Positions 16,583 through 55,898 of a DNA stretch of 64,000 nt are shown here, piece after piece (the first letter of the stretch is position 1; each line of letters opens with the position of its first letter). The notes under the pieces were generated by a model. That model searched no databases, was not told where the DNA came from, and was given only the letters and a program-made list of their open reading frames with translations. Origin of the DNA: an uncultured Chloroflexia bacterium (GTDB lineage Bacteria > Chloroflexota > Anaerolineae > Anaerolineales > UBA4823). The stretch covers positions 286,938 through 350,937 of the forward strand of contig CAVQOI010000001.1 in NCBI GenBank assembly GCA_963714425.1. The letters run 5' to 3'. The translations under genes and the position numbers were made by a program.

Positions 16583-18013
16583 ATGCTAACCCGGTTGAAT
16601 TCAATTTTACAACACAAATGCTTGATCGTAGCTGGCAAACCTCTGTTGGTTGGAGTATCGGGCGGCCCTGATAGCCTGTGTTTGCTGGACTTGCTATACC
16701 GCTTGGGTATTCCTCTGGGGGTAGCCCACTTCAACCACCAACTGCGGGAGCAGGCGTTGCAGGATTCTCTCCAGGTTGAGCGATTGGCAAGCGAACTTAA
16801 GCTGGGGTTTGTATCTGCATCCATGGATGTAGCGGCATTCGCGCAGGAAAATTCCCTCTCCATCGAAGAAGCGGCGCGCGAGCTCCGGTATCGCTTTTTG
16901 TTCAGCGAAGCCAGGCGAGGCGGGTTTCAGGCAGTGGCTGTAGGCCACAGTGCCGACGATCAGGTGGAGACCGTCTTAATGCACCTGCTGCGAGGTGCCG
17001 GTCGCGATGGTTTGGTGGGCATGCCCTACCGCCTGCAGCCTAACCCATGGGATGCAGAAATCCCTCTTATCCGCCCTCTGCTAGATTTTTGGCGGGAGGA
17101 AATCCAGGCTTATATCAGCGAGCGCGACCTGCAGCCAGTGGTTGATGAGAGCAACCTGGATGTGTCTTATCACCGCAACCGCCTGCGCCTCGAGACGATT
17201 CCTTACCTGGAAGGGATTAATGCCCAGATTAGGAAATCTCTCTGGAGAATGGCGGATGTCTTGCGCGAGGAGGGGCGCCTGCTAGATGAATTGACCCGGC
17301 AGGGATGGGATGTGTGCGTGCCGGAGGAAGGTCCCGGCTACTTTGCCTTCGAGCAAACGATTTTCGCGAGCCAGGAGATTGGCCTGCAGCGGCGCTTGAT
17401 CCGGAACGCCATGCTGAGGTTGGTGCCGGGCTTGCGGGATTTAGACTTCGAGACTGTGGAGCGCGGTAGGAGGTTCCTGGCCGAAGCGGGCCGGATGGGG
17501 AGGTGCAGTCTAATTGGCGGCTTGTCCTTGCTGCGTGAAGTTGGGCGTGTGTGGCTATGCTCCCAGGAAGCGCAGCTGCCAACGAGCGATTGGCCGCAGA
17601 CGTGCTCCACAGAAGTTGAGACACTCACCATCCCTGGGGTGGTGCCGATGCAGGCGGGCTGGGTCTTGCAAGCGGAGATCGTCTTGAATCCCCCTCAGGA
17701 TTATCGCGCCAATCAGGACCGCTTCCTGGTGTGGTTGGAAGCAGCTTCCCTGCCAGACGAGCTGTATGTGCGCCGGCGGCAGCGGGGAGACCGGATACAG
17801 CCATTAGGTTTACAAGGTCGCTCGGCAAAAGTCTCCGACCTTATGGTCAATGCTAAAATCCCGCAGCGTGCGCGCGACGGCTGGCCGCTGGTGTGTGCCG
17901 GGGAAGAGATCGTTTGGGTTCCCGGGTGCCGGCAGGGGATGACAGGGCGCGTCCAGGCAAACACAGAGCGGTTTCTACGCCTGAGCTTGAAAAAAACAGG
18001 TTTTCGTGCATAA
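16583..18013 (+). CDS. tilS: tRNA(Ile)-lysidine synthase
   Basis: PP-loop VGVSGGPDSLCL plus the TilS substrate-binding and C-terminal domains. ATG 16583 is preferred over GTG 16535. A TATAAT at 16568-16573 lies only 9 nt upstream of that ATG. Confidence 0.88.
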   Translation: MLTRLNSILQHKCLIVAGKPLLVGVSGGPDSLCLLDLLYRLGIPLGVAHFNHQLREQALQDSLQVERLASELKLGFVSASMDVAAFAQENSLSIEEAARELRYRFLFSEARRGGFQAVAVGHSADDQVETVLMHLLRGAGRDGLVGMPYRLQPNPWDAEIPLIRPLLDFWREEIQAYISERDLQPVVDESNLDVSYHRNRLRLETIPYLEGINAQIRKSLWRMADVLREEGRLLDELTRQGWDVCVPEEGPGYFAFEQTIFASQEIGLQRRLIRNAMLRLVPGLRDLDFETVERGRRFLAEAGRMGRCSLIGGLSLLREVGRVWLCSQEAQLPTSDWPQTCSTEVETLTIPGVVPMQAGWVLQAEIVLNPPQDYRANQDRFLVWLEAASLPDELYVRRRQRGDRIQPLGLQGRSAKVSDLMVNAKIPQRARDGWPLVCAGEEIVWVPGCRQGMTGRVQANTERFLRLSLKKTGFRA

Positions 18014-18020
18014 TGGTGAT

Positions 18021-19001
18021 ATGGCGGTAGATCAATTCGGACGGTGGATTCATTATTTACGCATCAGCCTGACCGATCATTGTAACTTGCGCTGCATTTA
18101 CTGTATGCCCGAAGACATTACCTTCCGGCCGAACGCAGAGCTGATGCAGGATGACGAGATTCTTACCCTGGTGGAGCTTTTTGCAGGGTTAGGGTTCGAC
18201 AAGATCCGTCTCACCGGAGGCGAGCCAACCGTACGCCAGGGGGTTGTCGAGCTGGTGCGCCAGATCGCGAACACACCCGGCATCCGCACAGTAACCATGA
18301 CCTCCAATGGGGTGTTATTCGAGCGCCTGGCGGAGCCACTGGCACAGGCTGGGCTGCGGAGAGTAAATTTCAGCCTGGACAGCCTCGATCCGCAAAAATT
18401 CGAGCGCCTCACTCGCCGTGGGTCGTTGGAACAAGTATTTGAAGGGATTTTCGCGGCCGAAAAAGCTGGGCTGACACCCATTAAAGTGAATGCAGTGGTT
18501 GTGCGCGATTACAGCGACGCAGATGTGGTCGACCTGGCACGCTTAACCTACGATCACCCGTGGCAGGTGCGTTTTATCGAGATGATGCCCTTTGCAGGAG
18601 CGACGGAGTTCCAGCGCTCGCAGGTGGTCACCGCAGACGAGATCAAGCAGCAGGTGGAAAAGAGCTTGGGAAGTTTGGAACCAGTTAATGAGGGCAGGCT
18701 CGATGGGGAAGCACGGCTTTATCGTTTGCCAAAGTCGCTTGGCGATCTGGGATTTATCTCCTCGGTGAGCCAGCCTTTCTGTGCTGACTGCACGCGGGCT
18801 CGCCTGACAGCGGATGGGCGCCTGCGCCTTTGCCTTTTACGCGAGGATGAAGTGGATCTGCTCGGACCGCTGCGAGCCGGCGCTACGCTGGCTGAGATGC
18901 GCCAGATCATCCTGGAAGGTATCTGGCACAAGCCCTGGGGTAATCGCCTGGCGCAGGGGGAAGTGCCTCTTAACCGCCTCATGAGCGAGATTGGAGGTTA
19001 G
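18021..19001 (+). CDS. moaA: GTP 3',8-cyclase (molybdenum cofactor biosynthesis protein A)
   Basis: Radical SAM motif CNLRCIYC, the YLRISLTDHCN N-terminus and the C-terminal Cys cluster CADCTRARLT. An alternative GTG start lies at 18006. Confidence 0.92.
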   Translation: MAVDQFGRWIHYLRISLTDHCNLRCIYCMPEDITFRPNAELMQDDEILTLVELFAGLGFDKIRLTGGEPTVRQGVVELVRQIANTPGIRTVTMTSNGVLFERLAEPLAQAGLRRVNFSLDSLDPQKFERLTRRGSLEQVFEGIFAAEKAGLTPIKVNAVVVRDYSDADVVDLARLTYDHPWQVRFIEMMPFAGATEFQRSQVVTADEIKQQVEKSLGSLEPVNEGRLDGEARLYRLPKSLGDLGFISSVSQPFCADCTRARLTADGRLRLCLLREDEVDLLGPLRAGATLAEMRQIILEGIWHKPWGNRLAQGEVPLNRLMSEIGG

Positions 19002-19037
19002 AAAAAAGCGGGCCAAGCCCGCTTTTTTCTAACCTCC
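18993..19037. terminator. 45-bp perfect palindrome / bidirectional intrinsic terminator
   Basis: GGAGGTTAGAAAAAAGCGGGC (18993-19013), loop CAA, then GCCCGCTTTTTTCTAACCTCC (19017-19037). The GC core is flanked by A6/T6. Confidence 0.85.
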
Positions 19038-19922
19038 AGAGAGTCTCTCCAGCTTCATGCTGATCTCCCGCCATTGAACCTTCGAGATGCCGAGCTTTTG
19101 GCGGATCTTCTCCTTCTCCATGCCCGACTCCCAATCACTCAGAGCGCTGGTCCAGCGGCACATATCGAAAGACATGTGCTTGTCGAGTCCAGCGTCCTCA
19201 CCAAGGTCTTCAAGCAGGTATTCGAGGCGGCGTTGCGACCACGGGAACAGGCGATCGTCGAGCGCATATTGGCTATGATACTCATGATAGGCGCTCAACC
19301 AGCTTTCGGAGAGTGGGATTTTTCGCTCCTTATAGCGATGCTGCGGGCTGGCATAGCGCACAAACAGCTGCGGTCCGGAGGGCGAATCAAGATCGACGTG
19401 ATTAAGGCTGACGGTGACGCACTCGCCCTTCTTTATTCCGGTTTCCAGCAGCAGGGCAACCAGGGCATAGGGGCGCGCGTCAGGTTTGTCCTGGCGGCGC
19501 ACTTTTTCTGCTGCAGTCAAGACAGCCTCCACCTCGTCTGGCGTGAGCACCTGCGGTAAGGGGCTGAGAACGGATTTCTGCGGCACTTTCTCCGCAGGGT
19601 CTACCAGGGTAGCTCCATTTTTGTGCAGCCAGCGAAAGAAGGCTTTTAGAGCGGTAATGCGGCGGGAGAGAGTTTTTGGGCTGCACGGAACGCCGCGAGC
19701 GTTTTGCATCCAGTCAAGGAAAGCGTTCAGGTCGGTGGTGTTGATCTCTCCAAGCGGCTGGTCCGGCGGAAGGTAGGAAGCCAGCAAGCGCAGGTCAGCG
19801 GTGAATGCTTTCACAGTATGCACAGAATTGCCCTGATCCTCCAGGAAAATGCGCCAGGCATTGATGGTGGGAATGAGCAGGGAGCTCGAGGTAATATGTG
19901 CAGAAGGAGAAGTGGATGTCAT
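19029..19922 (-). CDS. tyrosine-recombinase-like protein lacking canonical catalytic residues
   Basis: N-terminal SAM-like core-binding domain (HTVKAFTADLRLLASYL...LSRRITALKAFFRWL). In the C-terminal fold, box I is TGIKKGE (no Arg), box II is FDMCRWTSA, and there is no Tyr in the last ~40 aa. Confidence 0.7.
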   Translation of the reverse strand: MTSTSPSAHITSSSLLIPTINAWRIFLEDQGNSVHTVKAFTADLRLLASYLPPDQPLGEINTTDLNAFLDWMQNARGVPCSPKTLSRRITALKAFFRWLHKNGATLVDPAEKVPQKSVLSPLPQVLTPDEVEAVLTAAEKVRRQDKPDARPYALVALLLETGIKKGECVTVSLNHVDLDSPSGPQLFVRYASPQHRYKERKIPLSESWLSAYHEYHSQYALDDRLFPWSQRRLEYLLEDLGEDAGLDKHMSFDMCRWTSALSDWESGMEKEKIRQKLGISKVQWREISMKLERLSGG

Positions 19923-20154
19923 CGAAACCTCCAGATGGACAAAAAATTCGTATAGCCAAAGATGCGCATAGTTTAATGTAGAAAGAGTTTTCTGTCAACA
20001 CCTTTCCCCCCACATCCAGAACATAACTTTCGAGCGCAGGCTCTATGGTACGGTAGTACTAAATGCTGATTGACAAGTTCAGGACAGATGCGTATCCTAT
20101 CGCAATCGGACAATTAGCGTCCAAATTATAACAATTGCAGTGGAGGATATTGGT

Positions 20155-20664
20155 ATGAAAATCAGCAAGCGTCTGTTCGTGATCGTCGTGTTCGTTCTTC
20201 TCATTCTGGCATTGCCTGGCACGGCCATGGCAAACAAGCAGCTATGGCAGGCGAGGCTGTCGACAGACAATGAGCTGCATCAAGTTGTTGGTTCTTCGGC
20301 ACGTGGCTCCGCGACGTTCGCCACAGCTCCGGATGGCACAGGATTCAGCTTCATTATCGTGGTGCGCAACTTATCTGGTCCAGTTACCGGTGCGCACATC
20401 CATGCTCCTGCCGACGAGACGCAGAATGCATCTGTGGTCCTCAGCTTGTGCGGTAATCCAGCTCCATCAGCTACAGGAGAGGCGTGCGAAGTTGTGGATG
20501 GTGTCCTGACCATTGAAGGGACAATTACATCGAGTGACTTGCTTCGCGGTGGTGTAACTGGCGCCGAGCTGAAGGAGTGGATGGATGATGGCCTGACGTA
20601 TATCAACGTGCATACGGCGTCGAACCCGGCAGGTGAAGCCAGAGGGCAGATCTACCCGCGCTAG
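20155..20664 (+). CDS. secreted CHRD domain protein
   Basis: ATG 20155 follows GGAGGA. Signal peptide ends ...LPGTAMA. Motifs GAHIHAPA and YINVHTASNPAGEARGQI are typical of CHRD domains. Confidence 0.8.
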   Translation: MKISKRLFVIVVFVLLILALPGTAMANKQLWQARLSTDNELHQVVGSSARGSATFATAPDGTGFSFIIVVRNLSGPVTGAHIHAPADETQNASVVLSLCGNPAPSATGEACEVVDGVLTIEGTITSSDLLRGGVTGAELKEWMDDGLTYINVHTASNPAGEARGQIYPR

Positions 20665-20739
20665 CCTCCCTCCTGATTACCGGACCGTCGAGCTCAAGAA
20701 AGGGGCGTGACGGTCGCCGGTCTTACACCCATATACAGG

Positions 20740-20773
20740 TCGCTCCGGAATCCGGTACCAGGTTCCGGAGCGA
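20740..20773 (+). other. 11-bp perfect hairpin downstream of the CHRD gene, no U-tract
   Basis: TCGCTCCGGAA (20740-20750) pairs with TTCCGGAGCGA (20763-20773) across a 12-nt loop. Confidence 0.5.
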
Positions 20774-20910
20774 TCTGGATTATCCACGGCGCCAATGACA
20801 CGCTGGCACTGAATGCCTCACCACCCCAGGCGCCTCATTGCATGGATGGGCGTCTTAACAAGTACTTAATTCTCATTGCAATTATGATAAAATTAGTCTA
20901 ATATTTCCTT

Positions 20911-20964
20911 GATACTCGGGCGAGTGTCACTGAATAAAAAGGCGAGCCACAGCTCGCCTTTTTT
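20911..20964 (+). ncRNA. candidate ~54-nt small RNA (orphan promoter plus intrinsic terminator)
   Basis: TTGCAA (20876-20881), a 17-nt spacer and TAATAT (20899-20904). Then a stem GGCGAGC/GCTCGCC (20941-20947 / 20952-20958) followed by T6 (20959-20964). No credible ORF lies between. Confidence 0.3.
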
Positions 20965-21117
20965 ATTTCAATCTGTGAACTTGAAACGAGTGGCAAAGAG
21001 TGGCTGCATTATTATGTCTGTAATTGAATCGGACGTGTACAGAATATCTGACAATAATGTACGCAATCCGAATTACCTGTTGACAACCACCTGTGATCAT
21101 GATATTTTTGTTCTAAG

Positions 21118-22735
21118 ATGCCAATCGTCCGGCGCCTCGTTCTGTTTGCATTGCTCTGCCTGCTCTTACTGGCGGCAGGTGGACGGTTCAGTCAACGCGT
21201 CGAGGCCCAAGAAGGCGGCAGGCAAATGACCATTGTCGTTCCCTTCACAGAATATGAGTGGTGGCTTCTGGCCTTCGACGATAACGAGCTCAAGTGCCAG
21301 TTCAAGACCGACCACGAAGGCTTGCCCAATGGTGATGAGGTTGGAAGATATTGCGGCGCTGAAGTGCAAGCTGACTGGCTGAGCACCCCGCCCTGCGACA
21401 AAATCCTCAAAGGCAAAGGCAAGATCACTGCCTGCAACGGCCTGTACCTGTTGGAAATCTCCTCCCAACCCAAACAAAAAGAGATCCTGATTGACCTGCC
21501 GATCGCCTCAGCAGGCGTTACGCTGGAAGGCTGCACGCCAGAGCCGCCGGAGAACCTGTGTCAAGAGCTGCCTGAACCTGCTGGTAACCGGCGAAGAGCC
21601 TCTCCCCAACGAGCGCATTACGTCAATTGAGGGGAGCTTCAATGGCGTCCCATTTTTCTGTGAGGGCGAAAGCTGCGCCTTGCCGCTGCCTACAACTACG
21701 TTTGCCGGTATGATGGTTGAATTTTGGGCAAATTCTTCCTTCGGCAATTCCAGCCCGAAGTACACAGCTCAGGTGCGCGTCATCGATGCGGGTGTGTCCC
21801 TCACACCTGGTGGGGGCGGCTGGCATGTGGACGTGCTGAGCAGCCAATGGCGCGGCGCCCGCCTGGCAAGCTGCTCACAGACCTGGGGGGCGTTCGCACC
21901 GGTAGGCGGCAGCGTGGACTGGCTTACATCCCCTGATCAATTCGAGTTATTAGCCAGCGACGATGCCTACTATTATCTGGCAGGCAGGCTGATCTCCCAG
22001 GGTGTGGTCGACGCTTCGCATTGCCCCAGCTTGGGATTGCTGCCAAACGGCTATGCTGACACATGCGGGCTCGAATCCGCTGCACCCCTGGTGATGGAAT
22101 GGCAGAACCAATTCGATGCCCGCATTATCGAAGTTTCCAACGAGACGTCTGTCCCTGCGCAGTTAATGAAAAACCTGTTCGCCCAAGAGAGCCAATTCTG
22201 GCCTGGAATGTTCAAGGTCGAGCGTGAGTTTGGACTGGGTCAAATAACGGATAAGGGGGCGGATACGATCCTGTTATGGAATCCGGCATTCTACGAGCAG
22301 TTTTGCCCGTTGGTGTTAACGCAGGATACCTGTGACAAAGGCTATCTCAATTTACCCATCGATATTCAGGAGATGCTGCGAGGTGCCCTGGCGATCGAGG
22401 CAAAGTCGGATTGCCCGCAATGTGATGCAGGGGTAGACCTGACAAACGCGACCTTCAGCGTCAGGCTGTTTGCCGATACATTGCTGGCGAGCTGCGAGCA
22501 GGTGGCGCAGGTCGTGTTCAATGCAAGCGGCGCGGTTCCAGGGGCGGTAAGCAGCTACGAAGACCTGTGGCGCTTCACGCTGGCGAACTATCATGCAGGC
22601 CCGGGTTGCCTTTCCTACGCCATTCACGCTGCCTGGGCAGTCAATGGGCAAGAGTTGCTCTGGGAAGAGGTCACAGGCCAATTCACTGAGGCGTGTCTGG
22701 GGGTGGTGCCTTACGTAGAAAAGATCACGAAATAA
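21118..22735 (+). pseudogene. secreted SLT (lytic transglycosylase-like) domain protein, split over two overlapping frames
   Basis: ORF 21118..21630 has a signal peptide (MPIVRRLVLFALLCLLLLAAGG). ORF 21491..22735, in the +1 frame, carries LFAQESQFWPG...FGLGQITDKGA, which is SLT-like. Both frames are open across 21491-21630, and the second has no plausible independent start. Confidence 0.6.
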
Positions 22736-22844
22736 GGTCGAAATTTTCAACACATACGGCACAAAGTAAACGCAAAGGTTATAAAATATATTGTGTGCTT
22801 GGTGTAGCCTTCGTGACCTTCGTGTTAAATCTTATCACCCGTTT

Positions 22845-23030
22845 CTAAAGTTCTTTTACCAGCTCGAGGAATTCGCGCCACTCCTCATCAAAGAAGTGTA
22901 GGGTGACGTTGTTGAGCTCCAAATGGTAGGTGATCTCACCATCTGGCTCTTCGGCTCGCCAGGCGATGTAGTTTTCCGTCTCAGCGAAGACATCCGTCTT
23001 GGGTTCGGAATTGGTATCTGCTTTTGCCAT
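22845..23030 (-). CDS. 61-aa acidic protein of unknown function, translationally coupled to the radical SAM gene
   Basis: ATG 23030 lies 7 nt after the radical SAM stop (TGA 23038-23040). The gap GGGAGTT provides the SD. The sequence is MAKADTNSEPKTDVFAETENYIAWRAEEPDGEITYHLELNNVTLHFFDEEWREFLELVKEL. Confidence 0.55.
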   Translation of the reverse strand: MAKADTNSEPKTDVFAETENYIAWRAEEPDGEITYHLELNNVTLHFFDEEWREFLELVKEL

Positions 23031-23037
23031 AACTCCC

Positions 23038-24837
23038 TCATTCTCTCTCTACTTCTTTTTTGTTTGTATAATTCGCGGCTGAATAAGTTTGTAAGTTCTC
23101 AAGGTGTTCTAACTCCCATCCCAACTCATCGAACCAACGCTTGCCAATGCGGCGACTAATAGGTACTGCCTGGTTGGATACACATGAGGAAAAGACCAAT
23201 TCATTGCGAGCTTGAATCTCATCCCCCAGCTTTTCCAGCTCGGTGAGGCGCACCTGGGAATCAGAAATTTCATCGACCTTGTGGACGACCTGGATGAATT
23301 CGAGTGCATCGTCAATTCTCGCATTATACATTTTTACGACACTTCCTGGAAGGAAGCCAGTGTCAGCTTTTACTTGCATCAATCGTTTTATAGCTTTATA
23401 ACCAACCTTGACGATATCCGCCCGCGAGAGCCACGCGGTCTCGTAATTGAGGCGATTAATGATCGAAGCTCTTCCCATTGCCTGACGGTGCTCGTCTACC
23501 GTCCGATAGAATACGCGGTACCCATGCTTCGAAGGGTTTTCAAAAAACGTGGATGCAGGATCCAGGAACGGTATCATGGGGCAGATCATCGGATTCAGGC
23601 GCAAATTCCGGAATTTGCTCATGATGTGGTGGGTATACTCAACTGTGTGCATGACCGAAGTCTCATCCTGTTCGGGCATTCCCACAAAATACCAGAGATC
23701 GATCCGGTAGATACCCAGCCCTAATGCTATTTCGATCCAGCGCTCTAATTCCTGGTTGGTATAAACCCCTCTCCCAGCCAATTTGGAGACCCTAATGTCA
23801 TGGCTTTCTGGTGAAAGCGTGATTGTCGTATGTTTATTTGCTGCAACCATTTTTTTGAGCACTTCCACAGGAGTCAAGTAATACTGCTCGTAACTGATAG
23901 ACTTCAACCCCGCGCGCTCAACCAAATCGAGATATTTGTCGATCCTGGAAGCAGGCTCGTTATAAAAATTAACCGGATAGAAATGATATCTGTCGATATC
24001 CTGAGAAGATCCCATCGATTCAAACTCATACCGGATGTTTTCAAACGGTACGTAAGCTAGGCTACTATGGGTGGCATGAACTCTTTTGAAAGCATCTCGA
24101 GAACCGCCGCACCACCCACAGTTATAACTACAACCACTATTAGAAGTAGAAACCATTTCCAGTATCGGAATGACATCAGATTTTTCTTTTTTAGGTAGAT
24201 CGGACCAATCGACGCAATAACTGGATCTATGGGGCTTATGATAAAAGCCGTTGTCCACAATTTTCTTTTCGGGTGATTTCCACAGGAGATTGTCTACATT
24301 TCCCAGGCTATGCCCTGAATCGATGGCTGCCATGAGTTGCGCCATCGGCCTGTGCGTATCATAGCCGCGCATGACGAAGTCGATATACGGATAACGAATA
24401 ATCTCATTCGCATAGTAGGTGGAGGAGATACCGCCAAAAAGGATGGGAATATCCCTCCGTACTAATTTCAAACGCTCAGCTATCGCCAGACTACCTTGAA
24501 CATGAACCATCCAGTGTAGATCAATCCCTACCAAGCTTACATCCAAGGAATTAAATAAAGTATCGAGGTTAATTTGCGGAAATTGCTGCAGAAGCACAGC
24601 AAGATTGACGATTTTTACATCATATCCTTTAATGGCAAGATACCTTTGAAGCGACTTAAATCCTATCGGAAAATACTCGTATAGCGGTGAGATGGGTACC
24701 GCGCCAGAAGTCTCCAGAAACGGGAAGTAGATGTCACGCCGGGCGCGAAACTCGAAGTAGGCAGGTGGGTGAAGAAGGAGAAGATCTGCTTGCAGTTTTA
24801 CGAGATACGGGTTGTCCAGCATGATATCAGGATCCAT
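23038..24837 (-). CDS. B12-binding-domain radical SAM protein (class B-like), function unknown
   Basis: 599 aa. N-terminal Rossmann-like B12-binding region (DVKIVNL...GIDLHW...PILFGG). CxxxCxxC cluster in GCSYNCGWCGG (about 24104-24133). The gene is visibly AT-richer than its neighbours. Confidence 0.8.
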   Translation of the reverse strand: MDPDIMLDNPYLVKLQADLLLLHPPAYFEFRARRDIYFPFLETSGAVPISPLYEYFPIGFKSLQRYLAIKGYDVKIVNLAVLLQQFPQINLDTLFNSLDVSLVGIDLHWMVHVQGSLAIAERLKLVRRDIPILFGGISSTYYANEIIRYPYIDFVMRGYDTHRPMAQLMAAIDSGHSLGNVDNLLWKSPEKKIVDNGFYHKPHRSSYCVDWSDLPKKEKSDVIPILEMVSTSNSGCSYNCGWCGGSRDAFKRVHATHSSLAYVPFENIRYEFESMGSSQDIDRYHFYPVNFYNEPASRIDKYLDLVERAGLKSISYEQYYLTPVEVLKKMVAANKHTTITLSPESHDIRVSKLAGRGVYTNQELERWIEIALGLGIYRIDLWYFVGMPEQDETSVMHTVEYTHHIMSKFRNLRLNPMICPMIPFLDPASTFFENPSKHGYRVFYRTVDEHRQAMGRASIINRLNYETAWLSRADIVKVGYKAIKRLMQVKADTGFLPGSVVKMYNARIDDALEFIQVVHKVDEISDSQVRLTELEKLGDEIQARNELVFSSCVSNQAVPISRRIGKRWFDELGWELEHLENLQTYSAANYTNKKEVERE

Positions 24838-24851
24838 TGTTTGGCAGTGCT

Positions 24852-25931
24852 TTATGGCGCGGGCAGGACATACCAGGGATTGACGAAACCTCCCAGGTAG
24901 CGTACTTCGAAGTGCAGGTGGGCGCCGGTAGAGTTGCCTGTACTGCCGGCATAGCCGATGATAGAGCCCTGTCCGACACTGCGCCCGCAGCCAGCCGAGG
25001 TGCTGGACAGGTGACCGTATACGGTCTGGTAGCCGTTGCCGTGGTCGATCATGATCATATTCCCGTATCCACCTGTTGACCAGCCGGAGAAGACCACCAC
25101 ACCGCTGTCGGCAGCGTAGACCTGGGCGCCTTCGCCCGCAGCGATATCAATCGCAAGGTGACCAGACCAATAATCATTGCCAGAGAGCGAGTGGTTGCTG
25201 GCGGGCCAGATGAACCCCCCACTACCGTAAGCGCCCTCATAGCTGCCGTCGCACGCGCCGGCGCCGTAAACAGCCCGCGACACGCCGGCTGCCCCGCGCG
25301 GGATAACGGGGATGATCCACTGGCGGAACTCGCGATGCCCGCCCGGGACCATCACCAGGGTGCCAGGCTCGAGAGCTGGATTGGTTAGATCGAAGGGGTT
25401 ACCGGACCAGGAGAGGAGTGCCTTCTGATCGGCTTCAAATCGCCCCGCCACGCTTTCTAGAGTATCCCCAGCTTGCCATTCGTAGTACACGCCGTCTATT
25501 GGAGGGACTAACAACTCCATCCCCACGGAGATCATGTCTGGGTTGTCGTTGAGCAGATCGTAGTTCGCCCACAGCAAGGTTTCGGGTTTGATTTTGAACA
25601 GCGCTGCGATCTCGAAGACAGAATCGCCAAACTCGACAGTGTGAGTCTGGACGGCTACGCTGGGGCGTGTTGGGATGAGGGTGCGTAGCTCGGCTTTTCG
25701 ACCCACTGCTGGGATGCTCTCGAACATCACCCAGGGGGGCAGGCGGACAGGCTGATCGGATTCAACTGCATGCGGTGTGGCAGTGACAGCCGCCTGGGCA
25801 ACTGCTCTGACTTCTGGAAGCGAGGATTCTGTAGCGACATATCCCCAACCCAGGAAACCAGCATAGCCTGTCAGGCTCAAGGCGACCAGCCAGGCAAATA
25901 CTGATGGCAGAATGCTGGATTTAGGGGACAT
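24852..25931 (-). CDS. LysM-domain M23 family metallopeptidase
   Basis: N-terminal TM segment and two LysM-like repeats (HTVEFGDSVFEIAALF; YEWQAGDTLESVAGRF). M23 motifs HLAIDI and GAHLHFEV. Confidence 0.88.
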   Translation of the reverse strand: MSPKSSILPSVFAWLVALSLTGYAGFLGWGYVATESSLPEVRAVAQAAVTATPHAVESDQPVRLPPWVMFESIPAVGRKAELRTLIPTRPSVAVQTHTVEFGDSVFEIAALFKIKPETLLWANYDLLNDNPDMISVGMELLVPPIDGVYYEWQAGDTLESVAGRFEADQKALLSWSGNPFDLTNPALEPGTLVMVPGGHREFRQWIIPVIPRGAAGVSRAVYGAGACDGSYEGAYGSGGFIWPASNHSLSGNDYWSGHLAIDIAAGEGAQVYAADSGVVVFSGWSTGGYGNMIMIDHGNGYQTVYGHLSSTSAGCGRSVGQGSIIGYAGSTGNSTGAHLHFEVRYLGGFVNPWYVLPAP

Positions 25932-26074
25932 GACTCTTGATCGATCGCCTGGGATTTATCTGGGCAGGTTAATCTAAGGCTAGCTCTGGCGACTGTTTGC
26001 GGCTCAAGTGCAGCAGTTATCCGAGAATTCCCCCGGTCGTATGTGCGCGATGGGGAGGTGGAAACTGAAAGGAT

Positions 26075-27355
26075 TTATCGGTCTTCGTCGGTGAGCGTCT
26101 CAAGGAACTCGAGATTATCGTTGGTGCGCGCCAGGCGCTGCAGGATGGCTTCGGTGCCAGTAGACGAGTCCAGCCCAGCACCGTGGGGTGGGGCGGTGAC
26201 CATCTGATCGTACATGCGACGCATCAGCCACACGCGCGGGGTGATATCTGGTCCAAGCAGCAGCTCTTCACGCCGGGTGGAGGAGCGCTCGATGTCGATT
26301 GCTGGGAAAACGCGCCGCTCTTGCAGACGGCGAGAGAGGTGAAGCTCCATATTGCCGGTCCCTTTGAATTCTTCATAGACTACATCGTCCATGCGCGAAC
26401 CGGTGTCGACCAGGCAGGTGGCGATGATGGTGAGCGAGCCGCCTTCCTCGATGTTACGCGCTGCGCCGAAGAAGCGCTTGGGCGGGTAGAGCGCCGATGG
26501 GTCGATTCCGCCAGAGAGGGTGCGCCCGGAGGGCGTGACCACCAGGTTATAGGCGCGCGCCAGGCGGGTGATCGAATCCATCAAGATGACCACGTCGCGG
26601 TTGACTTCTACCAGGCGCTTGGCGCGTTCCAGGACCATTTCGGCGGCGCGCACGTGGGAAGTGACCGGCTCATCAAACGTCGAGGCGATGACTTCGGCGT
26701 CCACGGAGCGGTCCATATCGGTGACCTCTTCGGGGCGCTCGCCGATCAGGGCAACCATCAAATGCACCTCGGGGTACTTAGTCGAGATGGCATTGGCAAT
26801 CTGCTTGAGGATGGTGGTCTTGCCAGCCTTGGGGGGCGAGACGATCAAGCCGCGCTGCCCACGCCCAATGGGGGTCACGAGGTTGATCAGGCGTGTGGCC
26901 AGGGTGTGGCGATCCATCTCCAGGTCGAAGCGTGTATCGGGGAAGATGGGTGTGAGTGATTCGAAGACCGTCCGGTGGCGGGCGATCTCGGGATCAATAC
27001 CGTTGATGCTCTCGACCTTCAACAGCCCATAGTGCTTCTCGGATTCGCGCGGTGGGCGGACGTGACCGATGATCAGGTCCCCATTGCGCAGGTTGTAGCG
27101 CCGGATCTGGGATTGCGAGACGTATATGTCGTAGGGACCCGGCTGGTAATGCCCGGAACGCAAGAAGCCGATCCCTTCGTTCATGATCTCCAGAATGCCG
27201 CCGCGCACCTCCAGGCCTTCACGTTCAGCCTCAACCTGCTGGATACGCAGGATCAAATCTTCTTTCTTAAGCCGGAGAGCATTGGGGACATCGAGATCTT
27301 TCGCCTTCTGGCGCAATGCGGAGAGTGGTGTGTTTTCTAATTCTATGACCTTCAT
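26075..27355 (-). CDS. rho: transcription termination factor Rho
   Basis: Rho N-terminal domain (LSALRQKAKDLDV), a cold-shock-like RNA-binding domain, Walker A SPPKAGKTT and the RecA-type ATPase core. Confidence 0.96.
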   Translation of the reverse strand: MKVIELENTPLSALRQKAKDLDVPNALRLKKEDLILRIQQVEAEREGLEVRGGILEIMNEGIGFLRSGHYQPGPYDIYVSQSQIRRYNLRNGDLIIGHVRPPRESEKHYGLLKVESINGIDPEIARHRTVFESLTPIFPDTRFDLEMDRHTLATRLINLVTPIGRGQRGLIVSPPKAGKTTILKQIANAISTKYPEVHLMVALIGERPEEVTDMDRSVDAEVIASTFDEPVTSHVRAAEMVLERAKRLVEVNRDVVILMDSITRLARAYNLVVTPSGRTLSGGIDPSALYPPKRFFGAARNIEEGGSLTIIATCLVDTGSRMDDVVYEEFKGTGNMELHLSRRLQERRVFPAIDIERSSTRREELLLGPDITPRVWLMRRMYDQMVTAPPHGAGLDSSTGTEAILQRLARTNDNLEFLETLTDEDR

Positions 27356-27775
27356 GGTTGTGGACTCTGTTGCCTCAGGGGACGATGATTAGGTGCCACC
27401 GCCAGGGAGGTTTGCGTCCTGGCAGCGGGGCCGGTGAGCGGGTTAGGTGGGATTTAGCGTGAGAGGATCAATGACATCGGAACAGGTGCAGACGCATTAT
27501 AGCATACCCAGGGGAAGCCTGAAAACCTCACTCATGACCACCAGAACCACGATTAAGGGGTTAATCTGAAAGACCGGAACCTGTACCTCACAGGCCGGAC
27601 CAATACGAGTACGGGTAGACAAAATCTAATTCTTGGATAAGGATATTCCCCAGGAGTGCGCTTATTATAACATGAAATTGGGGATACTGGCGTAGGCAAG
27701 ATTGAACCAAATTGCAATCTTATGCGACTCAACAATTAAACAAGCATTTCAATCGGTCAGCAATGGAGGCACACC

Positions 27776-49885: not shown

Positions 49886-50003
49886 CCTTGGCAATGACCT
49901 ACTCTCCCAGGGGGTCGCCCCCCAAGTACCATCGGCGCTGACGGGCTTAACGACCGGGTTCGGAATGTGGCCGGGTGTACCACCGTCGCTCCAATCACCA
50001 AGA
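49886..50003 (-). rRNA. rrf: 5S ribosomal RNA
   Basis: The reverse complement reads TCTTGGTGATTGGAGCGACGGTGG...CCGAACCCGG...GCGCCGATGGTACT...GAGAGTAGGTCATTGCCAAGGG, with the terminal helix closing. Confidence 0.9.
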
Positions 50004-50152
50004 GACAATTTCACAGTATTTTGTTTTGAATAAGCGCAGTGCAGTTAGACGAGTAGGGGATTCAATCCTTCGTTATAACGAATAGCGATTGACCACGCTC
50101 GTCTTTGCTCTTTCCTTTCGCATTTAGAAAAGTTTCGAGTTCTCCGCACCAC

Positions 50153-53127
<2,975 letters not shown>

Positions 53128-53359
53128 TCGTGATGCGGAGAAATCGAAACTTTTCTAGGCGCTTCTCAAAATTACTAAGAAGTCACCTTTCTTAATTATG
53201 CGCTTATTCAATTATTAAGGTACAGAACTATCGAGAGACAAAGCGACCCGGCAAACCGCCGGGTCACTTATCCCTTGCGATTTTACCTGGAAATTTGATT
53301 AAGTCTCGAAAAAATCTACCAAACTCAATCCTTTTGCTTTGTCTGGCCTCGTAGCCAGG

Positions 53360-53432
53360 TGGAGATGAGGGGACTCGAACCCCTGACTTCCGCCTTGCAA
53401 AGGCGGCGCTCTCCCAGCTGAGCTACATCCCC
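53360..53432 (-). tRNA. tRNA-Ala (anticodon TGC)
   Basis: The reverse complement is GGGGATGTAGCTCAGCTGGGAGAGCGCCGCCTTTGCAAGGCGGAAGTCAGGGGTTCGAGTCCCCTCATCTCCA. It folds as a cloverleaf with a G3:U70-type acceptor. Confidence 0.97.
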
Positions 53433-53445
53433 GTTTACCGAGGAG

Positions 53446-53519
<74 letters not shown>

Positions 53520-53658
53520 AGCTGACCGGGCCCTTAGCAACTGAGAAGTGATAGAAAACGGTCTGCTTTCAGGTGTCTCAACACCGCTGAAGAGACATGT
53601 TGTGAGTGGAGCCTCCTACCGCGCCACAAGGGCGCCAGAGGGAAGCTCAGTACTCGTA

Positions 53659-55167
<1,509 letters not shown>

Positions 55168-55472
55168 AACTTTATACGCACAGAGTGCGTTTGGTTACGG
55201 ATGTTCCTGAAAAGACAGGTTGTCGCTTTCTATCACTTTTCAGTTGTTAAGGTCCAGTCAATCAAGCGGGCTGGATTGTACCAGCCTCACTTGTGCCTGT
55301 CAAGGCTGAAACGATTGTTACACAGACGCAATCGCCGATGCCTAAACTCTCTGACATCGGCCCGTCAGACCATCAAGTTTTTAACTCAGGTCTCTGACGC
55401 AGGGGCGTCCTATTCAGTTGTTACCGGTCTGCCCACTTGGGCTAAACCTCAACTTGTAACTTCGCGTATTCT

Positions 55473-55513
55473 ATTATACCCGACCTGACAATTCTGTCAA
55501 GATATGATATTAT
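55473..55513. promoter_or_regulatory. overlapping back-to-back promoters for the rRNA operon (minus) and rnpB (plus)
   Basis: Minus strand: TTGACA (55500-55495), a 16-nt spacer, TATAAT (55478-55473). Plus strand: CTGACA (55485-55490), a 17-nt spacer, TATTAT (55508-55513). The two -35 boxes form the palindrome TGACA-ATTC-TGTCA. Confidence 0.6.
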
Positions 55514-55517
55514 CCGA

Positions 55518-55898
55518 CATGTCCAGGTCGGTCGGGCGATCGCGTTTTCCCCCTATGGGAGATCGAGGAAAGTCCGCACTCCAAAGAGCACGGCGCCGGG
55601 TAACACCCGGAGCGGGGTAACCTGCTGGATCGGGCTACAGAGATATACCGCCAGTAATGGTAAGGGTGAAAAGGTGGTGTAAGAGACCACCGGCGCACGC
55701 AGTAATGCGGGCGGCCAGGCAACCCCCGCCGGGAGCAAGGCCAAGCAGGAACGAATGAAACGGCTCGTTTCTCCACCCAAAAGGGTGTAAGTTCCGGGTA
55801 GGCTGCTAGAGCTGCGCTGAGAAGTGCAGACCAGAGAGATGATCGCCGAGGCGTTAACTCGCCCCACAGAATGCGGCTTACAGACCGGCCTGGAAACA
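55518..55898 (+). ncRNA. rnpB: RNase P RNA, bacterial type A
   Basis: GAGGAAAGTCCG at 55565-55576 and ACAGAATGCGGCTTACAG near 55866-55883. P1 pairs TCCAGGTCGGTC (55522-55533) with GACCGGCCTGGA (55883-55894). Confidence 0.9.

Follow-up and report, generated by a model that had tools for sequence, protein, structure and literature searches.

Does a small acidic protein whose gene begins 7 nt behind that of a B12-binding radical SAM enzyme belong functionally to this enzyme, or does the close spacing have another origin? In the Anaerolineae genome considered here, the two genes had been proposed to form an AT-rich, horizontally acquired two-gene island, in which the enzyme would act on, or together with, the small protein. 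RiPP methyltransferases are included among the class B radical SAM enzymes, and a small ORF adjoining a class B radical SAM gene is also what is seen in pairs of RiPP precursor and maturase (e.g. PoyC-type, TIGR03975 C-methyltransferases). We have analysed the locus in the context of the window, i.e. the whole 64-kb stretch of DNA under study, and consider a different history highly probable, namely the insertion of one foreign radical SAM gene of ~1.77 kb into the spacer between the M23 gene and the small ORF of a conserved Anaerolineae gene string. The features of the locus are the following:

21118–22735, plus strand: native gene in convergent orientation, coding for a weakly SLT-like protein and split into 21118–21630 and 21491–22735
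22736–22844, no strand: convergent intergenic spacer with an imperfect palindrome (tandem 9-mers and opposite arm)
22845–23030, minus strand: native gene of the 61-aa acidic protein (conserved Anaerolineae family, no Pfam entry)
23031–23037, minus strand: gap of 7 nt, GGGAGTT, forming with the TGA before it the GAGG/GGGAG Shine-Dalgarno sequence of the small ORF, as read from the sequence
23038–24837, minus strand: putatively inserted cobalamin-type (class B) radical SAM gene, 599 aa, of a CloN6-like/TIGR04190-related clade (Pfam, NCBIfam, fold, composition, absence in relatives)
23060–23066, minus strand: second CAAACAA copy at the right junction, within the 3'-terminal part of the radical SAM ORF, as read from the sequence
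24838–24851, minus strand: putative left remnant of the original spacer between M23 and the small ORF, AGCACTGCCAAACA, matching the start of the empty-site spacer of the relative L175
24852–25931, minus strand: native LysM-M23 peptidoglycan metallopeptidase gene, upstream of the insertion (Pfam Peptidase_M23, E 1.6e-31, and LysM)
26075–27355, minus strand: rho, encoding the transcription termination factor, at the head of the conserved native string (Pfam Rho_N, Rho_RNA_bind, ATP-synt_ab)

Gene order and base composition

The reading frames and distances of the original prediction were reproduced. The 599-aa ORF (23038–24837, minus strand) contains GCSYNCGWCGG, corresponding to C236/C240/C243, and the 61-aa ORF (22845–23030, minus strand) has exactly the sequence that had been quoted. 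As claimed, the two are joined by TGA-GGGAGTT-ATG, so that 7 nt separate them and a GAGG/GGGAG Shine-Dalgarno sequence precedes the small ORF, and 14 nt lie between the stop codon of the upstream M23 gene and the start codon of the radical SAM gene. The convergent neighbour, which had been taken for an SLT-domain gene, is present as well, but its Pfam SLT match remains below threshold (14.8 bits, cutoff 21.3). This gene is syntenic in 18 loci and forms a single 538-aa ORF in relatives, whereas it occupies two frames in the window, with the frame switch located at about 21578–21603 by tblastn against relatives.

The tandem 9-mer CCTTCGTGA/CCTTCGTGT described at 22808–22825 was also found, not as a local feature but as one arm of a conserved imperfect palindrome, consisting of two copies of CCTTCGTGN at 22808–22825 and an opposite arm CACAAAGTAAACGCAAAGG at about 22759–22777. 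In the relative L175 the palindrome occupies the corresponding position, and in L176–L178 it is located upstream of the small ORF; the predicted fold of its RNA lacks significance (z = -1.44). The idea of a dispersed repeat of the REP or MITE type was rejected on account of this fold and because no further copy of the palindrome was found in the window or in the loci.

With regard to base composition, the low G+C of the segment was borne out for the radical SAM stretch, which has a lower G+C than any other 1.8 kb of the window (0.457 vs a mean of about 0.548, sd 0.023) and lies ~4 sd below this mean. Its GC3 amounts to 0.498, compared to 0.57–0.75 in the neighbouring genes, and is ~0.07–0.25 under that of the flanking genes. 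The idea of a two-gene island did not survive this analysis, since only the radical SAM gene is atypical. The small ORF has a native GC3 of 0.629, like its neighbours, and its total GC of 0.50 is explained by amino-acid composition (GC2 0.29). In addition, a comparison with 5.8 billion proteins gave no homologue of the enzyme closer than 61% identity, and the few organism-named homologues belong to Gemmatimonadota, Planctomycetota, Streptomyces and Polyangiaceae. By its composition, its absence from syntenic relatives (see below) and its distant homologues, the radical SAM gene looks horizontally acquired. The predicted horizontal acquisition is accordingly retained for the enzyme gene, on the basis of GC3 and the empty sites, and dropped for the small ORF, whose composition is native.

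The empty site in relatives and its junctions

Window proteins were compared by tblastn with 88 small-ORF loci, 15 of which share the synteny of the window (rho, mostly M23, small ORF and convergent SLT-like gene). Altogether, 19 syntenic loci from different species display the order rho, M23 (in 15 of the 19) and small ORF, and the radical SAM gene is absent from them. The spacer before the small ORF, counted from the M23 stop or from the rho stop where there is no M23 gene, measures 10–117 nt in these loci and contains no radical SAM remnants. It is purine-rich, and in most relatives carries a GGAG-type Shine-Dalgarno sequence ~6 nt before the small-ORF ATG. Rho is 86–96% identical across the syntenic relatives. 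The M23 C-terminus ...HLHFEVRYLGGFVNPWYVLPAP* recurs in relatives in which the small ORF comes directly after. The closest relatives, L175–L178, also lack the radical SAM gene, and their identity to the window amounts to 96% for Rho, 89–91% for the small ORF, 80–89% for the SLT-like protein and 72–87% for M23.

The DNA of L175 is collinear with the window on either side of the insert, and its alignment with the left remnant breaks off at the radical SAM ATG. This remnant ends in CAAACA at its 3' end, which, extended by the first letter of the radical SAM start codon, yields CAAACAA (24843–24837). The same heptamer recurs at the right junction and is the sole repeat common to both junctions; a single CAAACA is found in L175, at the corresponding place. 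The presence of CAAACAA at both junctions is weak evidence of a target duplication or of microhomology. The foreign segment is best placed at ~23067–24836 (about 1.77 kb), and the last ~9 radical SAM codons (TNKKEVERE*) are probably derived from native spacer, of which 14 + 7 nt lie outside the radical SAM ORF. No long direct or inverted repeats flank the insert, the repeat search having returned chance-level short repeats only, and neither a tRNA near the insert nor an integrase adjoining it was found; a XerC-like recombinase gene is located 3 kb away, outside the insert. An own Shine-Dalgarno sequence is not obvious for the radical SAM gene, and a promoter and terminator scan of 22500–27700 gave counts equal to the shuffle expectation. 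The lack of mobile-element hallmarks and of an obvious own Shine-Dalgarno sequence weighs against the insertion, as does an insert of almost exactly one ORF, which is unusual.

This near-exact fit in the spacer and the absence of mobility signatures would be in keeping with a radical SAM gene that is ancestral to the rho-M23-small-ORF operon and was repeatedly lost in relatives. We consider such a history very unlikely, because the gene is lacking in 19 out of 19 syntenic loci whose short spacers are free of remnants, because its GC3 falls below that of the flanking genes, and because its nearest homologues are ~60% identical, the organism-named few belonging to other phyla. An assembly or binning artefact of the metagenome-assembled genome, for which the uncultured source and an enzyme without close relative anywhere might speak, has next to no probability in our view, as both flanks keep their collinearity with relatives up to a few nt from one complete ORF, with 14 + 7 nt left outside. 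A chimeric join is not expected here, because a single complete ORF sits cleanly inside a short collinear spacer.

Class, clade and possible substrates of the enzyme

The assignment of the enzyme to the class B radical SAM proteins, as had been proposed, was confirmed on several lines. A B12-binding domain (Pfam PF02310) covers residues 51–162 with 51.9 bits (cutoff 32.1, E 8e-14), Radical_SAM (PF04055) scores 26.4 bits, slightly below its cutoff of 29.5, and the CxxxCxxC cluster (C236-x3-C240-x2-C243) is invariant in 35 sequences. The AF2 model of the enzyme (pLDDT 85.9 overall, with the tail 592–599 below 50) finds its best Foldseek matches in TsrM, MgmA, AprD4, TokK, CysS and OxsB (E 5e-16 to 8e-12, probability 1.0). 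By domains, motif and predicted fold, the enzyme is thus assigned to the cobalamin-type class. Whereas the overall fold of the model is like that of these known B12 radical SAM structures, TM values reach only ~0.44–0.52 at a sequence identity of 10–16%, and a sequence comparison with the PDB gave no match at E < 0.01; the low TM, the low identity and the lack of a PDB sequence match therefore point to a distinct subfamily without a solved member.

Comparison with radical SAM subfamily HMMs, for which TIGR04190-like proteins had been named among the candidates, returned TIGR04190 (B12_SAM_Ta0216) as the best match (343.2 bits, E 2.7e-102), with a nearly full-length alignment of residues 18–543 on profile positions 1–531 of 554. 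As this score stays below the curated 500-bit cutoff, the relationship holds but membership does not, and the enzyme is to be regarded as a relative of this family. A literature search found no papers on TIGR04190/Ta0216. Of the 152 family-invariant positions, defined over 34 homologues, 148 are kept by the enzyme, which is an intact, outlying member of its clade at 56–61% identity. A more distant clade with 34–40% identity adjoins SelA, FdhE and formate dehydrogenase genes and may be the TIGR04190 family proper. An Rfam scan of the window detected no cobalamin riboswitch and no other riboswitch near the locus.

Dozens of the 56–61% identical homologues bear the JGI product names 'CloN6' or 'CloN6/CouN6'. 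The clade is widespread, and none of its members recovered as homologues in this analysis is a characterised protein. Among the neighbours in 49 close-clade loci, we counted AMP-binding proteins (16 loci), acyl-CoA dehydrogenases (10), an 88-aa PP-binding carrier (8), an ~850-aa protein (7) that has a weak GDSL-lipase match and an apparently hydrophobic N-terminal part, and PKS KS (6). CloN4 and CloN5 have their roles in the adenylating-enzyme/carrier part of the CloN4/CloN5/CloN3 logic. The carrier/CloN3/CloN6 logic fits the neighbourhoods of the clade (PMC10849742), and TsrM methylates sp2 carbons by a mechanism that has been put forward for CloN6 as well (PMC9204698). Like CloN6/CouN6, the enzyme combines B12-binding and radical SAM domains with a CxxxCxxC motif, a sizeable minority of the close-clade loci adjoin an adenylating enzyme, a PP-binding carrier and an acyl-CoA dehydrogenase, and the best structural match of the enzyme is TsrM. 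In contrast to CloN6, the window gene is not part of an aminocoumarin cluster, and its host is an Anaerolineae bacterium and not a Streptomyces. The suggested CloN6 relationship derives from the JGI product names of homologues and from gene context.

Judging by analogy from the genes that surround its homologues, the enzyme is most likely a B12-dependent C-methyltransferase acting on a non-peptide substrate, the candidates being an acyl or pyrrolyl group tethered to a carrier protein, or else a substituent of a glycan. Homologues of the AMP-binding, PP-binding (carrier) and glycosyltransferase proteins are absent from the 64-kb window, and acyl-CoA dehydrogenases are represented there by just two generic proteins, encoded ~13 kb off and only 30–32% identical to the neighbour in the clade. 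Since no such partner genes are present in the window, the enzyme may be an orphan at this locus, although partners may be encoded outside these 64 kb.

Two of the close homologues whose contigs were consulted (L010 and L173) lie in glycosyltransferase/polysaccharide-export clusters, and near clade members a Dlt-like set is formed by the adenylating enzyme, the 88-aa carrier and the large, weakly GDSL-like protein with its hydrophobic-looking N-terminal part. The idea that one large membrane protein accompanies the enzyme across loci was discarded, as the L010 and L174 proteins are not homologous. These clusters, together with a transcript that is probably common with M23, no terminator being predicted between the two genes, could suggest that the captured enzyme was recruited to cell-envelope chemistry along with the M23 and SLT-like hydrolases, e.g. 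to the methylation of a wall-polymer substituent. We regard this as unlikely, given that the genes are adjacent in this lineage only, probably by accident, and that glycosyltransferase, carrier and adenylating genes are missing from the window.

The 61-aa protein and its spacing to the enzyme gene

The 61-aa protein is very acidic (pI 4.25, net charge about -11) and contains no Cys. In agreement with the statement that it is not recognised as any known family, no Pfam or NCBIfam family was matched. More than 1500 homologues share 60–90% identity with it, and at least 573 relatives occur in GTDB species genomes; these are mostly labelled Anaerolineae and, save for one MAG labelled Herpetosiphon sp., titled Chloroflexota. 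The family alignment is uniformly conserved with 16 invariant columns, and a pN/pS of 0.15 over a 45-residue core, with pS saturated, indicates strong purifying selection. In 72 of the 88 small-ORF loci, an AI-2E transporter homologue is present, nearly always directly upstream of the small ORF, and an FHA gene is additionally found in 57 of those 72. A profile search with the family alignment against 1.84 billion representatives gave 206 matches (E up to 0.001), and among the best 150 of these, all 38–157 aa in length, no fusions to larger domains were encountered.

The AF2 model of the protein consists of four beta-strands and a C-terminal helix (pLDDT 87). Its best Foldseek matches are PUR repeats (Pur-alpha), which have a similar topology of four strands followed by a helix, but the resemblance is non-significant (E 0.2–1.2, TM 0.41–0.56) and amounts to a weak lead only; moreover, the protein is unlike typical nucleic-acid binders in being very acidic. 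With respect to DUF6686, on which a literature search found no papers, two-repeat homologues of the protein reach the cutoff at 31.3 bits, whereas the window protein itself scores 13.8 bits, below the cutoff of 23.9. From its conservation and predicted fold, we infer an independent, folded and strongly constrained protein of the housekeeping type.

Is this protein then modified by the enzyme, as a RiPP-like precursor, or bound to it as a dedicated partner or carrier? The 7-nt gap, a Shine-Dalgarno sequence that overlaps the stop codon of the enzyme gene, and a small protein without an assigned family would speak for such a pairing. The co-occurrence implied by a functional module was, however, not observed: a radical SAM homologue is present within about 6–8 kb at 0 of 92 small-ORF loci and, conversely, the small ORF at 0 of 85 radical SAM loci (L173 and L174 judged by gene tables). 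The small ORF is also older than the enzyme at this site, and where enzyme homologues have a small neighbour, it is the PP-binding carrier protein. Unlike in RiPP pairs, the 61-aa protein shows no conserved-leader/variable-core pattern and is instead uniformly conserved, constrained across its core, devoid of Cys and predicted to be compactly folded. RiPP-maturase NCBIfam models match the enzyme at noise level, far below their cutoffs (TIGR03975 17.5 bits, cutoff 281.85; ApyD 16.4 bits, cutoff 750), and no PqqD/RRE domain was found by Pfam. In the light of these results, the module that had been proposed is not upheld, and we judge modification of the 61-aa protein by the enzyme exceedingly unlikely. 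The 7-nt gap and the Shine-Dalgarno sequence can be explained by an insertion that hit a purine-rich native spacer and, as such, are not evidence of a functional pair.

Proposed history of the locus and its meaning

We favour a model of single-gene insertion, in which the ancestral string would have comprised rho, followed by LysM-M23 and the 61-aa gene and convergent with the weakly SLT-like gene. A single radical SAM gene would have been inserted horizontally into the short spacer upstream of the small ORF, the latter having been the downstream member of the rho-M23 operon from the start, and the enzyme would now presumably be co-transcribed with rho and M23. A more far-reaching view holds that the captured enzyme has gained a new lineage-specific substrate, either the 61-aa protein or a wall polymer handled by the hydrolases, and that, separately, the 61-aa protein is an undescribed Anaerolineae-wide factor tied to Rho or envelope function; to us, this appears distinctly unlikely. 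If true, a new substrate after capture would mean that a new enzyme-substrate pairing was made by a single-gene insertion.

Our verdict on the locus is that of an ordinary single-gene horizontal insertion. Its analysis documents two uncharacterised families, i.e. a conserved cobalamin-type radical SAM clade, with several phyla named, and a small acidic Chloroflexota protein, neither of which would be surprising to specialists. It further provides a note of caution for genome mining, as a close gap with a Shine-Dalgarno sequence here mimics a functional pair, and a RiPP- or module-mining pipeline would flag a false module where comparative genomics traces the 7-nt spacing to a probable single-gene insertion in a short operon spacer.

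Arrangement and composition of the locus

The radical SAM gene and the small ORF lie behind rho and a LysM-M23 peptidase gene on the reverse strand.

Features of the window (small ORF and enzyme from ORF calls, LysM-M23 and rho from Pfam)
18006–19001, +, MoaA-type radical SAM gene, 3–5 kb from the insertion (with the recombinase gene)
19029–19922, –, XerC/XerD-like tyrosine recombinase gene
21118–22735, +, convergent, weakly SLT-like gene (overlapping frames 21118–21630 and 21491–22735)
22845–23030, –, small ORF, 61 aa
23038–24837, –, radical SAM enzyme ORF, 599 aa
24852–25931, –, LysM-M23 peptidase gene
26075–27355, –, rho
49886–50002, –, 5S rRNA, part of a complete rRNA operon
50152–53127, –, 23S rRNA, same operon
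53358–53519, –, tRNA-Ala and tRNA-Ile, same operon
53660–55167, –, 16S rRNA, same operon
55524–55896, +, bacterial RNase P RNA (whole rRNA-RNase P region, 49886–55896)

The positions of both ORFs, the junctions (M23 TAA, 14 nt, radical SAM ATG; radical SAM TGA, GGGAGTT, small-ORF ATG) and a tandem 9-mer at 22808–22825 read as in the original prediction, which regarded the two genes as an AT-rich island encoding an enzyme and its putative peptide substrate or partner. The AT-rich region is real, the radical SAM stretch being the lowest-GC 1.8 kb in the whole window (0.457 versus a mean of 0.548, sd 0.023), but only the enzyme gene is atypical, with a GC3 of 0.498 compared to 0.57–0.75 across all neighbours and 0.629 in the small ORF. 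The latter appears AT-rich only on account of its second codon positions (GC2 0.29), reflecting amino-acid composition. Since the two genes differ in per-gene GC3, just one of them, not both, is compositionally odd. Another short stretch rich in AT (20700–21200, GC about 0.45) occupies intergenic DNA between a CHRD-domain gene (20140–20664) and the SLT-like gene start.

The enzyme and the small protein are evolutionarily unlinked

When the window proteins were run by tblastn against 88 loci carrying the small ORF, no radical SAM homologue was found within about 6 kb in any of them. Conversely, a small-ORF homologue was absent from all 80 radical SAM loci of a metagenome scan and from all four obtained by exact look-up (L011 and L012 are duplicates, leaving three distinct contexts), and in the gene tables of two further loci, L173 and L174, no small gene adjoins the enzyme. 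Co-occurrence of the two genes was thus found in neither direction across the loci examined, demonstrating that they are evolutionarily unlinked. That the small protein serves the enzyme as substrate or partner is not favoured by these data, and the pairing that had suggested a coupled module is accounted for by ordinary comparative genomics.

Instead of the enzyme gene, an AI-2E-family transporter homologue accompanies the small ORF in 72 of the 88 loci, directly upstream in nearly all, with an FHA gene further upstream in 57 of these 72 according to the gene tables. Two Anaerolineae contexts of the small protein are conserved among L001–L008 and L013–L092: behind FHA and AI-2E-family transporter genes (about 70 loci), or behind rho, usually with M23 (15 loci). 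The latter 15 share the synteny of the window without the enzyme gene, comprising rho, M23 (11/15), the small ORF and the convergent SLT-like gene, which is seen on every syntenic contig long enough to reach that site; in the other four, the small ORF directly follows rho. The spacer from the upstream stop (M23, or rho where M23 is absent) to the small ORF measures 10–117 nt in these loci and usually carries a GGAG Shine-Dalgarno sequence, and the M23 C-terminus (...HLHFEVRYxGGFxNPWYVLPAP*) is common to them and the window. In the closest relatives found, L175–L178 (identity to the window: Rho 96%, small ORF 89–91%, SLT-like 80–89%, M23 72–87%), M23 adjoins the small ORF with a spacer of 39–110 nt and the enzyme gene is absent. 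An ancestral enzyme gene that was repeatedly lost is not favoured by this distribution.

The small ORF is, rather, an old, native and independent gene. More than 1500 homologues were found at roughly 60–90% identity, the few organism-named ones labelled Anaerolineales or Chloroflexi; scanning single genomes of each GTDB species for its pattern recovered at least 573 relatives, and the best 80 listed loci are all labelled Chloroflexota, mostly Anaerolineae. An alignment of forty sequences has 16 invariant columns and the consensus AETENYLAWRAEEPDGExTYHLELNNVTLHFFxEEWxEFLELV. Across 68 loci, synonymous sites of the 45-codon core are saturated (pS 0.82) while pN is 0.12, indicating a genuine protein under strong constraint. 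The protein is acidic (pI 4.25), contains no cysteine and is predicted to form four beta-strands and a C-terminal helix (pLDDT 87); a fold search with it returned nothing significant, the top hits being Pur-alpha repeats (E 0.2–1.2). Its profile matched 206 of 1.84 billion representative proteins, and the best 150 of these are all 38–157 aa long, with one or two repeats and without fusions. Two-repeat versions weakly match Pfam DUF6686; in some homologues of 93–124 aa the C-terminal strand-strand-helix unit is duplicated, and these reach the cutoff of that family. The small protein is a member of an undescribed, taxonomically narrow family.

One foreign gene placed into a native operon spacer

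Using L175 as empty-site comparator, we found that window and L175 DNA are collinear, at 83% column identity, over a stretch that begins at the small-ORF start, takes in the spacer downstream and reaches into the convergent gene at its 3' end. On the M23 side, the match to L175 extends past the M23 stop and across AGCACTGCCAAACA, and breaks off precisely at the radical SAM ATG. At its 3' end, the radical SAM ORF (CAAACAAAAAAGAAGTAGAGAGAGAATGAGGGAGTT-ATG) resembles the rest of the purine-rich L175 spacer (CAAACACAAAGAACACAATGGAAAGAAGAGACT-ATG); therefore, CAAACAA stands at both junctions (24843–24837 and 23066–23060, – strand) and only once, as CAAACA, in L175. Taken together, these results show that one foreign gene was placed into a native operon spacer, and an assembly artefact is not favoured by the data.

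The insert would amount to about 1.77 kb, and the last ~9 enzyme codons (TNKKEVERE*), together with the small-ORF Shine-Dalgarno sequence, probably derive from the native spacer. Such an origin is consistent with the C-terminal tail of the AF2 enzyme model (592–599) falling below pLDDT 50 and with most homologues being shorter, about 580–600 aa. The CAAACAA repeat may represent a target duplication or microhomology, 7 nt being too short to be conclusive; repeat and tRNA searches found no other mobility signature at the insert. The XerC/XerD-like recombinase gene lies outside the inserted segment and has no evident connection to it. Because no terminator was predicted behind rho-M23, in a scan that was itself uninformative, the enzyme gene would be co-transcribed behind these genes.

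The spacer beyond the small ORF holds an imperfect palindrome that is conserved in the clade, with the tandem 9-mer CCTTCGTGN as one arm and CACAAAGNNNNCNCAAAGG as the other.

Palindrome spacer
Window, 22736–22844
L175, 1403–1529
L176, 3644–3751
L177, 292–401
L178, 974–1084

L175 (3–4 tandem copies) and the window carry it downstream of the small ORF, L176–L178 upstream, in the M23-small spacer; its RNA fold is not significant (z = -1.44). The SLT-like gene, a single 538-aa ORF in L176–L178, switches frame in the window at about 21578–21603, owing either to a sequencing-error frameshift or to a pseudogene.

Enzyme identity and gene neighbourhoods

The predicted B12-binding domain and CxxxCxxC cluster are borne out by Pfam (B12-binding, 51.9 bits) and by the motif itself, with Radical_SAM scoring just under its cutoff (26.4 bits). 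TIGR04190, which describes a B12/radical SAM family without assigned function, is the best-scoring NCBIfam model; at 343 bits against a 500-bit cutoff, the enzyme is related to this family but falls outside it. Every other radical SAM subfamily model (PhpK, HpnR, RiPP C-methyltransferase, ApyD) scored at noise level, and the subfamily comparison thus lends no support to a peptide-modifying enzyme. No PDB relative was found by sequence search; the AF2 model (pLDDT 85.9) finds its matches among radical SAM enzymes that depend on cobalamin, with TsrM on top and then MgmA, AprD4, TokK, CysS and OxsB, and as modelled the enzyme has the class B radical SAM fold.

The nearest homologue in a set of 5.8 billion clustered proteins shares only 61% identity with it. 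The clade has many members, often labelled CloN6 or CloN6/CouN6 by JGI, the few organism-named ones being assigned to Gemmatimonadaceae, Planctomycetaceae, Streptomyces and Polyangiaceae. Conservation within the clade is tight: among 34 homologues (mean pairwise identity 66%), 152 columns are invariant; the window enzyme is an outlier at 56–61% identity yet keeps 148 of them, and therefore looks intact and functional. It is a new, divergent and unusually placed class B radical SAM enzyme, CloN6-like and TIGR04190-related.

Neighbours in 49 close-clade loci
Adenylating enzyme (AMP-binding), 16/49
Acyl-CoA dehydrogenase, 10/49
88-aa PP-binding carrier protein, 8/49
~850-aa protein (weak GDSL-lipase hit; N-terminal part apparently hydrophobic), 7/49
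PKS ketosynthase, 6/49

This set follows the same thiotemplated logic as methylpyrrole formation, in which CloN3, an enzyme of the acyl-CoA dehydrogenase type, oxidises proline bound to a carrier before CloN6 methylates it (PMC10849742), CloN6 and CouN6 still being without mechanistic characterisation (PMC9204698; PMC12931638). Further close homologues are surrounded by glycosyltransferase or polysaccharide genes or, in Streptomyces, belong to a cluster for secondary metabolites. Judged by analogy to the clade, the enzyme would be a B12-dependent methyltransferase acting on a non-peptide substrate.

The close-clade set is also reminiscent of the Dlt system: adenylating enzyme, 88-aa carrier, acyl-CoA dehydrogenase and a ~850–900-aa protein, weakly GDSL-lipase-like and seemingly hydrophobic in its N-terminal part, recur near close homologues (L009, L094, L096, L118 and others), which hints at a possible transfer of the methylated, carrier-tethered group to an envelope polymer. 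Recruitment of the window enzyme to envelope chemistry is not favoured by the data. Adenylating enzyme, carrier and PKS homologues are absent from the 64-kb window, as is a cobalamin riboswitch, and it has just two acyl-CoA dehydrogenases, both generic and about 13 kb from the enzyme gene; the enzyme is probably an orphan in this genome.

Members of a more distant clade of this B12 radical SAM family (L144–L172, 34–40% identity) sit in a conserved string with a 312-aa protein (22 loci), SelA (19), FdhE (14), RluD (13) and formate dehydrogenase subunits, all except the 312-aa protein named by reading sequences only, a context that suggests a housekeeping role tied to selenocysteine or formate dehydrogenase.

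Overall, this locus is a caution for genome mining, and it points to two uncharacterised conserved families, the enzyme clade and the small protein.
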